IMG/VR virus record: IMGVR_UViG_3300026549_000067
Coordinates: 17,514-81,513 of that record
Length of the DNA stretch: 64,000 nucleotides
From: a virus
Taxonomy: Duplodnaviria > Caudoviricetes
Reading direction: 5' to 3' (one strand)
This document shows positions 41,539 to 46,132 of the stretch, in pieces; positions within the stretch are counted from its first letter, which is position 1, and each line of letters starts with the position of its first letter. Below the pieces are notes generated by a model that did not search any database, had not been told where the DNA came from, and worked only from the letters and a program-made list of their open reading frames with translations. The position numbers and the translations under genes are program-made.

Positions 41539-41664
41539 TGGATATGACAGGATTCGAACCTGCATGTGATGATTGATCGGATCATCCTGAGTAGTGCGCG
41601 CCCAGTGCATTACCACGGCAGTTATGTTGCACGCTAATTGCAACCGCCTTTATGCTACACATCC
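41539..41664 (-). ncRNA. tRNA-like RNA (126 nt) with ~50-nt insertion before an Ile(GAT)-like anticodon hairpin
   Basis: Acceptor GGATGTG/CATATCC-A; T-arm GCAGG-TTCGAAT-CCTGT; gatgat-ccGATca-atcatc. Confidence 0.6.
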
Positions 41665-41668
41665 ATAA

Positions 41669-41758
41669 TGGATACGGTGGGATTCGAACCCACATTACAA
41701 GTAGGTGGCGAACCCCTTGTTCTTTACCGCCAAAACTCTACCATTGAGTTACGTATCC
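41669..41758 (-). ncRNA. tRNA-like RNA (90 nt) lacking a canonical anticodon loop
   Basis: Acceptor GGATACG/CGTATCC-A; D-arm ACTC-AATGGTA-GAGT; T-arm GTGGG-TTCGAAT-CCCAC; anticodon domain irregular (GG-TTCG-CC). Confidence 0.6.
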
Positions 41759-41771
41759 ATATCCCATTATG

Positions 41772-42622
41772 TTATTTGTTTCGTTTTGCTAACTTTTCTT
41801 CTAACTCCGCAACTGCCTTGTCCAGATCTTCAGAACGCCAGTATGCCTGTCGCTTGCCCTTGCGCTGTTTGTTTATCACGGTTCCACCCATCAGGTAATC
41901 TATGTGGTCAACAATACACGGAAAGATGTTTGTCGCAGTTAGATTCGGCATTTTTCTTGTGACATATTCTCTGAACAGCGAATCATCACATTTGCCAGAA
42001 TTTAAATAGTCTGGAAACTGCTCTTTTGCTTCTCCGCTCTCCATCCACTTGACAAAACCGTCCATGAGCCTGTTCGGTATTAAAATGCACTGGAATGAAA
42101 ACCACATTCCGTTACATGACACCTCTCCGATGTAATTTGTTCTTTCGCCATCGAATTGGTTATTGCAGAACGCATTGGCAAATCCAGTATACTTTTTCTC
42201 AGCAATATCTCTAAAATTTGATCCAATTACAACATCGTCCTGTAAGTGCCATGTCGAATTGTACGGTTCAAGATTCTCCGCTATCCATTTGCAACTTGCT
42301 ACCCATGACGCAAGATTTCCGATGCTGTCATAGTCGTGCCAAACAATAATGTTATCTTCCTCGATGCCCTGTTCTAACAAGCTGGGTAACAGGAAGTCTT
42401 TCACGTACCATTCACGGTCATTGCAGACATGAATCATGTACTTCTGCGCAGTATCAAGATATTTGTCCATGTACTCTCTGCGGTAAATGTTCCGATTCTC
42501 ATACCAATCTTTGATTCCACAGTAATGCACGATTGCTGGATTATCCGTGTATCCTGTCGATTGGTTTTCATTGAATCTCAGCGGTACGACAGCGACTTTG
42601 TTTTGCTCTATGCCATATTTAT
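41772..42622 (-). pseudogene. glycosyltransferase, 3' remnant after IscB insertion
   Basis: RFNE..TG.TDNPAIVHYCG (GT8-like C-terminus) fused to an HLQDD GT-A-like domain; the 5' end MNIVYAMTRNV lies at 44404-44437. Confidence 0.65.
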
Positions 42623-42684
42623 CCAAAAGTAGGAAAGAATACCACCACCTCTAAGCGAAGCATAGGTGGCGGGATGAATTTCCC

Positions 42685-44181
42685 TCACAAATAGACAAGC
42701 CCTGTGTTTTGTGATGTGATTCGACAGTCTCGTCTCGGGTAGTTTGTCTTCTTGTCCCCCACAACACGTAAGTACAGTCCGCCAGAAATCTGCCCACTCA
42801 TCACGTGCCGTTCACCGTTATGAACAAACACAGTTCCGGGCATTAATCTCTTATCGCTATTGTAGTATCGCGTGCTTTTCTTCACGCTTACACGACTCAA
42901 CATATGCATAGCTCTTTGCTCACCATACAATTCAACCTGTTTGTCAAACCAGTCAGATAAGGCATCTCCCTTTTGTTCGAATCGTGGTTTTCTATTCTTT
43001 GCGATCATTTTTCCGTCGTAAAAATATGTACGTTCTCTTTGCGATTTAACGATTGCTCTGTTATGCCTTCTGAACTGCATGATATGGTACATCTCTCCAA
43101 TCGCATCAGGTTCCGGCAGCTCTTTAAAGAAGGAAAGCGCAATACAGTAAGCATCCATGAAATGCCTCTTGGGAAGCTGCAGTTTCTCCCGAATGCTTTT
43201 GGTCTCGTATCCGGTTGTTACATATGTCGGCAGTATTTCAGAAAGCTCCTTAAGAAGCATTTCCATGATCTGGTTGATTAGACTCAGCGCATGATACTTC
43301 TTTAAAATGCCTTCCTTCTTTTCTTTCAGCTTGCCTGCTGCCCGGTCGTTTTTGTGGACCTGCTCATGACAGGATGTACACAATCCGGCGATGTTGTCGA
43401 TACTTTCGCTTCCACCTCTGCTCTTCGGAACGATGTGATGAAACTGCTCGATGTCTGCTTCGCCACAAAGCAGACACTTATGTTTTTGCTGCTCTGCGAC
43501 AGCTTCGTCCCTGCTGTCATATCCAAACAGCCGGCCTTTTTGGTACTCCCAGTTCCTGATGTTCGGATTTTGCATTCTTGCGAAATCAAAAACATTGATT
43601 TCAACAACAACGCAGGTAACCGGAAGAATCTTCTGAATGAGCTTAATACAGTTAATATGCGTCTCCTTTAGCTGTCTTGCTGACGGTGTCAGCCATTCTG
43701 CTGCTCTGGTTCTGTTGTTGAATCTGGCTTCCGTGTTTCTGATATGCTTACAGCAGATCGGCTCCTTACAGCCCGGAAGCATACGCCAGAACTCGGTATG
43801 TTTTGCCATGCCGGTTTTGTCAGATGCTATAGCCCTTCTCTGGCGCTTTTTGCGTTCGCCTCTTCTGGAGGATTGCCGCATCTGCTTTCTATGAAGCATA
43901 AGTTTTGCAATTTCCTTGTTCCTTGTAACTGCTTCCGCGGCATAAAGAACATTGCCTCTTGAATCCACTGCTGTAAGCCCGATATTCGTTCTTCCCGGAT
44001 CGACGCCAAGAATTACATCATCCGTAAACGGATTCTCGATATCGTATGTGAGCTGAATGGTGAAAGGCTTATAGCATGCAATATGGGCCTTTCCCGACTT
44101 TAACAAGCGCCTTGCGCGCCCGTATTTGTGGATTGGCATCAGCGGCTTGCCACTTTTTGCCAGTACGTAGATATTTGGCAT
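42685..44181 (-). CDS. iscB: RNA-guided endonuclease IscB
   Basis: PLMP N-terminus, RuvC-I GVDPG, Arg-rich bridge helix, RuvC-II VVE, HNH HHIVPKSRGG..NIAGLC..CH, RuvC-III HFMDA. Confidence 0.95.
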   Translation of the reverse strand: MPNIYVLAKSGKPLMPIHKYGRARRLLKSGKAHIACYKPFTIQLTYDIENPFTDDVILGVDPGRTNIGLTAVDSRGNVLYAAEAVTRNKEIAKLMLHRKQMRQSSRRGERKKRQRRAIASDKTGMAKHTEFWRMLPGCKEPICCKHIRNTEARFNNRTRAAEWLTPSARQLKETHINCIKLIQKILPVTCVVVEINVFDFARMQNPNIRNWEYQKGRLFGYDSRDEAVAEQQKHKCLLCGEADIEQFHHIVPKSRGGSESIDNIAGLCTSCHEQVHKNDRAAGKLKEKKEGILKKYHALSLINQIMEMLLKELSEILPTYVTTGYETKSIREKLQLPKRHFMDAYCIALSFFKELPEPDAIGEMYHIMQFRRHNRAIVKSQRERTYFYDGKMIAKNRKPRFEQKGDALSDWFDKQVELYGEQRAMHMLSRVSVKKSTRYYNSDKRLMPGTVFVHNGERHVMSGQISGGLYLRVVGDKKTNYPRRDCRITSQNTGLVYL

Positions 44182-44403
44182 AATGCCTCTCCTTTCGTTA
44201 GTTTTGCAGCGATAATGACTGCAAGTCCAGCCGCTGCCACTGTTAAGTTTCCCGAGGCTTGGCGCAGCCTTTGCATTGCACGGAGCTGGGAAAACCCCGC
44301 GGTGTATGCTGCGTCACGCCTCTGCTCAACTACTCGTTGGACTTTATGCAAGCCCCCACTTCAAACAGATGCGCCAGCGTCTGTTAAGTGGTGGGTAGTT
44401 GAC
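44182..44403 (-). ncRNA. omegaRNA scaffold of IscB
   Basis: Starts gtcaactacccaccactt...aagtgggggcttg, then gttgagcag; sits directly upstream of iscB. Confidence 0.85.
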
Positions 44404-44492
44404 ACACGTTTCGTGTCATTGCGTATACGATATTCATGCCAGTTGCCCTTTGCCCCTAAAAATTCTTCCATGAACACAATCATAATCACAAA

Positions 44493-44565
44493 CGGAAACG
44501 GTAGGACTTGAACCTACGACCCCCTGATTAACAGTCAGATGCTCTACCGACTAAGCTACGCTTCC
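44493..44565 (-). tRNA. tRNA-Asn(GTT)
   Basis: Cloverleaf; ctga-ctGTTaa-tcag anticodon arm; GTTCAAGTC T-loop. Confidence 0.92.
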
Positions 44566-44801
44566 ATGTCGCTCCGTCCACCCTTCGGAGCATTGCGTCT
44601 GTTTTCATCGGTTCGTGGTAGTGAACTGCTGACAGGTGGAAAGCACTTAGTAGCTTGCACTGTGTAGATTAGTTTAATGTCTCTCTGCACTAAGACGAGT
44701 ATCCATATAACAGAATGTTGTGGGAGAGCCATAACTGACAGCCATCACCCACAACCTCTGTGAAAGGAAACAGATATTGGAAAGAAAAATAACAACGGAT
44801 C

Positions 44802-45421
44802 CCCATGAACACAATCATAATCATAAATGGATCTTCACCCTACACAACAACATCGTCACAATATTCAGCCACCGTTCCGACAAGTCTGAGCCATAAGGAG
44901 CGACCCTATAACTTCTTGCCAGTTCCCATAAGGGACAGTAACGAGTCCGAGTGGTCACGGAACAAATTTCACGCAGGTCATTCAGATTTTCTTGACCTAA
45001 TAACGGTACATGGATTTCAAGTCCATTCCGTTCTCTTCCATTTCAGAAGTCAATGCCAATTTGCGCTACTCTTTCACCGAACAGGTCTTATTGTCGGATT
45101 TCTCCGACTCAATGGCACAAGCTGTTTATGGACATTTCCGAGCGTTTCCGTATGTTGTCCAGACATACAGGCGTATCGGATTAAGCGATGCAGTGCATCT
45201 CTCTATTGCACAGCCGACCTGACAGCAACCTTTTGCGGCAACATTATTATGCGCATACGCTTGTCGTTGACGGTTTCCGTCTTCCAGAGAAACATCACTG
45301 CACCTCTGAAGCATACATACGGAAGTATCCCACCGCATATATACTTGACATACGCGCATCCCAAGCACGCTGACTAAGCGATCTTCACTTGGGTATTTAT
45401 GACCATGATTGTGTTCATGGG
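44802..45421. repeat. 27-bp inverted repeat enclosing the large RNA (44802-44828 / 45395-45421); third arm copy 44468-44492
   Basis: cccatgaacacaatcat(aa/gg)tcataaat; the third copy is 24/25 identical to the first arm. Confidence 0.9.
44829..45393 (-). ncRNA. ROOL-like (ROOL/GOLLD class) giant ornate RNA, ~565 nt
   Basis: No convincing sense ORF; next to tRNAs. Motifs recognised from memory: GUGAAGAUC at both ends, CUGUGCAAUAGAGAGAUGCAC, AAUAAGACC..GGUGAAAG, AAUCUGAAUG, GGUGGCUGAAUA..GUAGGGUGAAG. Confidence 0.75.
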
Positions 45422-45423
45422 AA

Positions 45424-45487
45424 AGGATTCTGTGCGGAATCGAACCGCAGTAACGAGTTATGCGTTACGCACTCCAGTGCCGATCCT
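45424..45487 (-). ncRNA. compact tRNA-like structure (64 nt)
   Basis: GCAC-TGGA-GTGC, GTAACG-CATAACT-CGTTAC, TGCGG-TTCGATT-CCGCA, closed by AGGAT/ATCCT. Confidence 0.5.
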
Positions 45488-45725
45488 AAATGATGAGATC
45501 ATCTATTATTCGCTTTTTTGGTGGGGACGCTTGTCTCTTCGGTGTTCCCCAAACCTGCACGCCTTATAAATGATTCAGCAAATGAAGGTAATTGATTATG
45601 AGTAGGTGAAGTAGTAGGCAATTCTGGTGTCGGCGTTGCACCGTTTGTCACGAAAAGCGCACCGGAGTTTTTGACGCTCCTTTAATCACAGCCATCTGCC
45701 GTAGTGCGCAAGGAGTATAAAGTAT

Positions 45726-46132
45726 GTCAACTACCCACCCACTAAAGTGAGTGGGCTTGTAACTATCCGGTAGTCCGAACGACCTGTGGTCTCCTGCCTT
45801 TGTTACAAGCGAGCTTGCTGATGTTACATCACGGGACGGTTGACAACGCCCCTTGCAAAGGAGATGTACTCCGATGCAACTGCAACGGTACTTGATTCCC
45901 ATGCTTGCAGTTAAGATGGTTATTTCAACACTTAAGATTTTACATTCCAAGTGATTAGTTGGAAAAACCTCATATCTTAACTTGTCAATGTTCAAAGAGT
46001 GCCTTCAGTAACAATGGTTACCCAACGGTTTTCTCTATGGGAATATTATAACACAAAATCTCACTTTTAGAAAGGAAAAACGGCTCCTCCCACCTGCTAA
46101 AGCAAGTGGGTTTCCGCCGCTGAATCAGTTTT
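45726..46132. mobile_element. ORF-less IS200/IS605-derived element (407 bp)
   Basis: gtcaactaccc terminus like the IscB element, with hairpin cccact-aaagtg-agtggg; second hairpin cccac..gtggg at 46089-46110. Confidence 0.7.

Follow-up and report, generated by a model that had tools for sequence, protein, structure and literature searches.

The long stem closing a giant RNA in a rumen phage is ROOL helix P1, and the second copy of its 3' strand is probably a recombination scar

The DNA analysed here, referred to below as the window, is the whole 64,000-nucleotide stretch of a Caudoviricetes genome, and it belongs to a complete 81.5-kb phage record in which the ROOL RNA is present as a single copy. 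A terminase gene and HNH endonuclease genes lie near ROOL, which has a tRNA-like element upstream and a tRNA-Asn gene downstream. The features of the locus, in the order in which the minus strand reads them, are as follows.

45425-45486, minus strand: degenerate tRNA-like cloverleaf (RNAfold) whose T-arm is canonical and whose acceptor stem is short, ending 3 nt before arm A
45395-45421, minus strand: arm A, the 5' strand of the ROOL terminal helix P1, identical in the related contig L199
44810-45416, minus strand: ROOL RNA, as matched by Rfam RF03087; 44802-45421 with the full stem included
44802-44828, minus strand: arm B, the P1 3' strand contiguous with the ROOL core
44567-44801, minus strand: spacer of 235 nt, present in alleles F1 and F2 only (see below)
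44492-44566, minus strand: tRNA-Asn (GTT) without an encoded CCA (ARAGORN; Rfam, 71.9 bits)
44468-44492, minus strand: B', a second copy of the P1 3' strand, with the downstream context found in alleles that lack the tRNA
44404-44467, minus strand: leader of a GT8 glycosyltransferase gene together with its first 11 codons (ATG at 44437), the rest of the gene being at 41772-42626, beyond the IscB element
42685-44403, minus strand: IscB-type element, consisting of an omega-RNA-like leader (44242-44403) and a 498-aa open reading frame (ORF; 42685-44181)

The ROOL match scored 340.7 bits, compared with a gathering score of 99.1, and covered model positions 1-574 of 574. The outermost helix of the Rfam consensus, between model positions 7-22 and 555-571, coincides with the 16-17 innermost pairs of A/B, and the arms are therefore part of ROOL and not external flanks. 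The ROOL stems P1 to P19 were proposed from covariation first and later confirmed by cryo-EM, and P1 is involved in tertiary contacts (PMC12286853). Both ROOL and GOLLD have been found in phages or prophages near tRNA genes, and co-transcription with tRNAs has been suggested (PMC5737381, PMC12286853). The RNA enclosed by the stem is a full-length ROOL, and A/B is its known terminal helix P1. An initial annotation of this DNA had placed the arms outside the RNA and considered the architecture undescribed. Most of A and B is already held by the Rfam match, and the helix they form is P1, which is included in the RF03087 consensus, in the published covariation and cryo-EM structures (PMC12286853) and in all ROOL loci measured here. 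On the other hand, the annotated geometry, that is, a 27-bp stem A/B together with a near-identical B', proved accurate by direct reading, repeat search and pair count.

On the minus-strand RNA, arms A and B form 27 contiguous pairs without mismatches, of which 25 are Watson-Crick and two, adjacent to each other, are G-U (pair count). As DNA, the two 27-nt arms are 93% complementary in a repeat search, and both non-complementary positions have G opposite T on the minus strand. Position 44824 in arm B is polymorphic (A or G on the minus strand) and gives either a U-A or a U-G pair with position 45399. B' is identical to B at 24 of 25 positions; when the flanking bases are included, the repeat search reports a direct repeat of 29 nt at 93% (44468-44496 versus 44803-44831). 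The 3' end of tRNA-Asn adjoins B'. A 21-nt core of the arm occurs three times in the window with no more than two mismatches, against 0.01 copies expected from shuffles.

To place this stem within the family, about 95 ROOL loci were collected from viral contigs by means of a conserved ROOL word, the RNA was positioned in them with nhmmer and the end-to-end helix was measured. All 37 distinct ROOL loci, the window included, had a cognate end stem of 12-32 pairs. The length of P1 was bimodal across these phage ROOLs (12-19 or 25-32 pairs among the 37 distinct loci), whereas the Rfam consensus has only 16-17. Arm A of the window pairs at 29 positions with the 3' region of its own locus (the 27-bp stem and adjoining pairs, two mismatches at most being allowed), whereas no other ROOL locus has a 3' region that offers it more than 13 pairs, so the complementarity is lineage specific and amounts to covariation at the level of the family. 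Most of the surveyed loci belonged to arrays of tRNA genes on the same strand, and often a tRNA ended 0-11 nt ahead of the 5' strand, a place taken in the window by the tRNA-like cloverleaf at 45425-45486. When the fetched flanks of 29 other distinct ROOL loci were searched by shared 12-mers, none contained a further 3' arm on the same strand, in a test that recovered B' of the window; the single stray match was an opposite-strand 12-mer located kilobases away in contig L081.

Close relatives of the window were gathered through intact GT8 homologues of 458-460 aa (96% identity), which gave contigs L187-L199, and through the terminase (97% identical), which gave L114. Other searches were less productive. 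A 20-nt arm core had only one match in viral contigs (L002), which was a chance match in a coding region without ROOL, and its ten matches in metagenome contigs were each only 20-22 nt long and all due to chance. A 25-nt ROOL-specific word matched nothing in viral or metagenome contigs, and a kinship search with the IscB protein found no related loci. Four alleles could be distinguished at the site.

F0 (L187, L188): tRNA-like element, 19-nt palindromic remnant and GT8 leader, without ROOL
F3 (L189-L198): tRNA-like element, arm A, ROOL, one 3' arm and GT8 leader, without spacer and tRNA-Asn
F2 (L114, a contig that does not include arm A): ROOL, arm B, spacer and a different long tRNA-like gene, without tRNA-Asn and second arm
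F1 (window, L199 and a contig from the Sequence Read Archive, SRA): as F3, with arm B, the 235-nt spacer and tRNA-Asn before the arm that adjoins the leader

The contigs with F3 stand for proteins on at least 30 contigs, and F3 is the commonest allele in the close relatives. Its single arm aligns to both B and B', is identical to B' of the window at 25 of 25 positions, and is joined directly to the GT8 leader and GT8 start of the window with nothing between. B and B' are thus direct repeats that bound an insertion/deletion difference of 335 nt, and the extra segment consists of an arm copy, the 235-nt spacer and tRNA-Asn. The two-arm arrangement was also observed outside the window: L199 is 91.8% identical to it over 1326 nt, with two arms, spacer and tRNA-Asn in both, and the SRA contig (run X6, from another study) covers 44423-45552 with the same arrangement. 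The locus is contained in public rumen and gut runs as contigs only, and one RNA library contains exactly this ROOL allele: RNA run X3 yielded one 584-nt contig identical to 44839-45399, an assembled contig from which RNA ends are not readable. The spacer and the greater part of each arm have no contig in that run; missing coverage and contig ends from one study carry no weight for or against processing.

The ROOL-less contigs L187 and L188 showed a further feature. In both of them (positions 300-345), the 19-nt palindrome links the tRNA-like element to the GT8 leader and matches the outer ends of the P1 arms. The presence or absence of the whole ROOL gene is therefore itself an insertion/deletion difference, whose limits coincide with the base of the stem that closes the RNA. 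A hairpin-mediated deletion is one possible cause of the ROOL-less allele.

With regard to the elements around ROOL, the tRNA-like element at 45425-45486 was not called by ARAGORN or by Rfam at standard thresholds, and a homologous element precedes ROOL in L189-L199 and is also found in the ROOL-less L187. The spacer shares 99% identity with that of L199 and about 81% with that of L114, and L189-L198 lack it. An Rfam search with E values up to 1 gave no partial ROOL match in the spacer, and the idea that it is a second, degraded ROOL copy was rejected on this ground. The tRNA-Asn gene is shared with L199, where 8 of 74 positions differ, and is missing in L114 and in L189-L198. Paired changes in the T stem are among these eight, while spacer and leader differ by only about 1%; given such flanks, the sequences suggest that tRNA-Asn itself was exchanged by recombination. 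Long tRNA-like genes that ARAGORN did not call, in which the acceptor and T arms are canonical but large inserts are present, were noted at positions 740-1110 of L114 and at 41539-41759 of the window; those of L114 follow the spacer and correspond to 41540-41670 of the window.

Downstream of B', the leader sequence 44404-44467 is the same one that follows the single arm in L189-L198, where it precedes intact GT8 genes of 458-460 aa. In the window, the GT8 gene is interrupted at 44404 by the IscB-type element, and its remainder is a 284-aa ORF (41772-42626). The split gene also lacks about 164 codons, as the 284-aa ORF aligns to residues 176-453 of the 460-aa protein P0001. The 498-aa ORF of the element contains RRXRR (PF14239, 163 bits) and HNH (PF01844) domains, and its leader has a weak HEARO match. 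Homology with the relatives ends exactly at 44404, and the intact GT8 alleles of L187-L199 represent the empty site. A contig from a rumen RNA library is identical over 44230-44448. The possibility that B and B' are a target duplication of the IscB element was rejected, since the element starts 64 nt further downstream and its family (IS200/IS605-type) is not known to make target duplications.

An orphan omega-RNA-like mini-element was observed on the plus strand at 45726-45945, with a weak HEARO match at 45726-45869. It shares a terminus of about 17 nt with the IscB element in inverted orientation (repeat 44390-44410/45719-45739), and homology with the relatives ends at about 45725. RNA-library contigs with about 95% identity to 45827-45925 reached a depth of about 20,000, so an RNA related to the mini-element is highly abundant in rumen metatranscriptomes.

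Comparison of the close relatives provided information on how the extended P1 has evolved. L189, L190 and L194 have a compensatory double change from C-G to A-U at pair 9:19, which lies outside the Rfam consensus helix. In addition, pair 23:5 alternates between U-A and U-G among relatives, the window and L199 have C-G (formed with B) at the outermost position of P1 where L191, L192 and L193 have U-A, and the stem of L191 has one A-C mismatch. By way of the one compensatory change, the aligned sequences confirm that the extended P1 is under RNA-level selection in the close relatives. The minus strand and the selection on the stem at the RNA level, both of which had been suggested in the initial annotation, are borne out by this change and by the G-U wobbles.

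A different picture was obtained for B'. Between the window and L199, B' has 0 differences at 25 positions, compared with 2 of 235 in the spacer and 1 of 64 in the leader, and it is therefore no better conserved than its neighbours. It also carries no substitutions between these two genomes that could reveal covariation with arm A. As would be expected of a direct-repeat scar, relatives have one repeat and no segment, and the repeat is not conserved beyond its neutral neighbours. Divergence between the window and L199 is concentrated in the variable linker of ROOL (41%), the upstream region (10.8%) and tRNA-Asn (8 of 74 positions), which points to piecemeal recombination. It should be noted that the linker (44925-45079, minus strand), compared with 0-3% divergence in the rest of ROOL, agrees with the disordered, non-conserved linker of the cryo-EM paper.

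With P1 identity, the allelic series and the compensatory change observed directly, our preferred explanation is that A/B is the P1 helix of ROOL and that B' is a scar of recombination or duplication at the DNA level, with no selected function as a second partner. We regard this explanation as probable. B' is read as a scar because the relatives carry a single arm and lack the segment bounded by B and B'. P1 has an extended length of 26-27 pairs in the phage lineage of the window, where it closes a ROOL that ends a block of genes on one strand as its last non-coding member, 3 nt after the tRNA-like element and, in the commonest allele, 30 nt before the glycosyltransferase start codon. B' represents the copy with the native downstream context, and B the copy kept contiguous with the ROOL core. 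The simplest account of the two-arm form would be an unequal or illegitimate recombination event that joined two phage genomes within this highly mosaic tRNA region, one parent having ROOL, spacer and tRNA and the other having ROOL directly before the glycosyltransferase gene; the join would be at the tRNA 3' end, which shares a microhomology of three to four bases with the base of the last ROOL hairpin. The change between F1 and F3 could equally have occurred in either direction, as an insertion that turned the single-arm form into the two-arm form or as the reverse change by deletion between B and B'. We infer both the recombination mechanism and its direction from the alleles. The extended P1 would probably protect and delimit the stable RNA, with the tRNA-like element on one side of it and the message that follows on the other.

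An alternative would be that A pairs with either B or B', and that a nuclease of the RNase III or Mini-III type frees ROOL alone or ROOL together with the spacer and tRNA-Asn. The A:B duplex (-43.4 kcal/mol) and the A:B' duplex (-38.8 kcal/mol) are each long and stable, and the predicted minimum-free-energy fold of the whole 1-kb precursor picks A:B', without recovering the tRNA cloverleaf. In the window, the two positions at which B and B' differ are changes from A to G, so that pairing with U in arm A is kept as G-U, and the two-arm form has been kept in L199, at about 8% divergence and with B' intact, as well as in the SRA contig from another study. These points are statistically uninformative, because there are two changes only, the local divergence is about 1% and energy minimisation of long RNAs is unreliable, as would apply to the predicted fold of a 1-kb pseudoknotted precursor. 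Meanwhile, a selected partner should be conserved and should covary with A across loci, and B' did not behave in this way: the second arm is missing in L189-L198, in L114 and in 29 other ROOL lineages, and where it exists it is no more conserved than the surrounding spacer and leader. The selected alternative partner claimed in the initial annotation thus finds no support in these lineages or in the commonest allele of the close relatives, which is single-armed and has neither spacer nor tRNA-Asn. The same annotation had held that a lack of such arms at other loci would speak for a duplication scar at the DNA level; other loci do lack a counterpart of B', whereas stems of the A/B type are present in all 37. 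Moreover, in both two-arm genomes the outermost base of A, a C, pairs with a G in B but faces an A in B', a mismatch, and A:B' as a whole consists of 22 Watson-Crick pairs, 4 G-U pairs and 1 mismatch. B is also transcribed 335 nt ahead of B', the ROOL-only transcript folds with A:B, and cleavage at the ends of tRNA-Asn would be expected to cut B' off the molecule that bears A. We consider such alternative processing quite improbable, and it is very improbable indeed that A:B' provides a functional second P1 3' strand in the two-arm phages.

It could also be proposed that spacer and tRNA-Asn are a mobile cassette, which either generated a target duplication of about 26 bp or integrated site-specifically with the arm as attachment core. 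The direct repeats of 25-29 nt around a 306-nt segment missing from the single-arm allele would fit this idea, as would the IscB element, the orphan mini-element and the HNH endonuclease genes in the surrounding region. However, no recombinase or transposase is associated with the segment, and it is established that IS200/IS605-type elements do not produce target duplications. The spacer occurs in L114 without tRNA-Asn or a second arm, so the segment does not act as a unit, and the difference between tRNA-Asn of L199 (8 of 74) and its flanks (about 1%) indicates piecemeal recombination. A cassette therefore appears unlikely. The notion that repeats and stem are mere chance similarities has only the short length of the arms in its favour and can practically be dismissed, considering the three copies against 0.01 expected, the position of the stem within a 340-bit ROOL match and its conservation with a compensatory change in relatives.

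The preferred explanation, P1 with a scar-like second 3' strand, may be compared with known systems. The window matches the full-length model of ROOL (RF03087; Weinberg et al. 2017, PMC5737381; cryo-EM nanocages, PMC12286853), with P1 pairing its ends, and as for known ROOLs it is of rumen source and its RNA lies in a phage genome among same-strand tRNA genes. It differs from the consensus in that P1 has 26-27 pairs in the lineage of the window, compared with 16-17 in Rfam and with lengths that reach 30 or more in other phage lineages, and from known ROOLs in that its sub-lineage has a second copy of the P1 3' strand 335 nt downstream, after tRNA-Asn. The large ornate phage RNA in a tRNA array resembles GOLLD with embedded or adjacent tRNAs (PMC12286853, PMC12990946). 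Only if A:B' formed would the likeness go further, with the tRNA inserted inside ROOL as it is in some GOLLD members; unlike the situation in GOLLD, the tRNA is missing from most close relatives and the tRNA-containing fold is hypothetical in the window.

A further comparison is offered by ribosomal RNA. Long-range helices flank 16S and 23S rRNA and are cut by RNase III, and spacer tRNAs are present in the operon. Similarly, a long, near-perfect helix flanks a large stable RNA in the window, which is probably co-transcribed with tRNAs, and with 27 pairs this long-range helix has at least about two turns. In contrast with rRNA processing stems, the inner part of the A/B stem is included in the mature folded RNA, where the cryo-EM models show it as P1, the second partner in the window is a variable duplication and no conserved element, and cleavage of the helix is putative.

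If A:B' did form, its exchange with A:B would make arm B, the spacer and tRNA-Asn internal to ROOL and create a tRNA-carrying isoform of a cage-forming RNA; alternatively, it would act as a switch linking the maturation of ROOL with the processing of the tRNA. Above all, the analysis clarifies what the stem is: the striking stem of this giant RNA is the known closing helix of ROOL, and its extra partner is, on the preferred explanation, probably a side effect of the mosaic nature of these genomes. Many phage ROOLs have a P1 (25-32 pairs) far longer than that of the Rfam consensus. In the lineage of the window, the extension is real, as the compensatory change supports it, and it could define the ends or the stability of the transcript. 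Finally, related rumen phages provide a natural series, with no ROOL, ROOL alone, ROOL with spacer, and ROOL with spacer, tRNA-Asn and a duplicated arm, which could be used for asking what ROOL and its flanks contribute.
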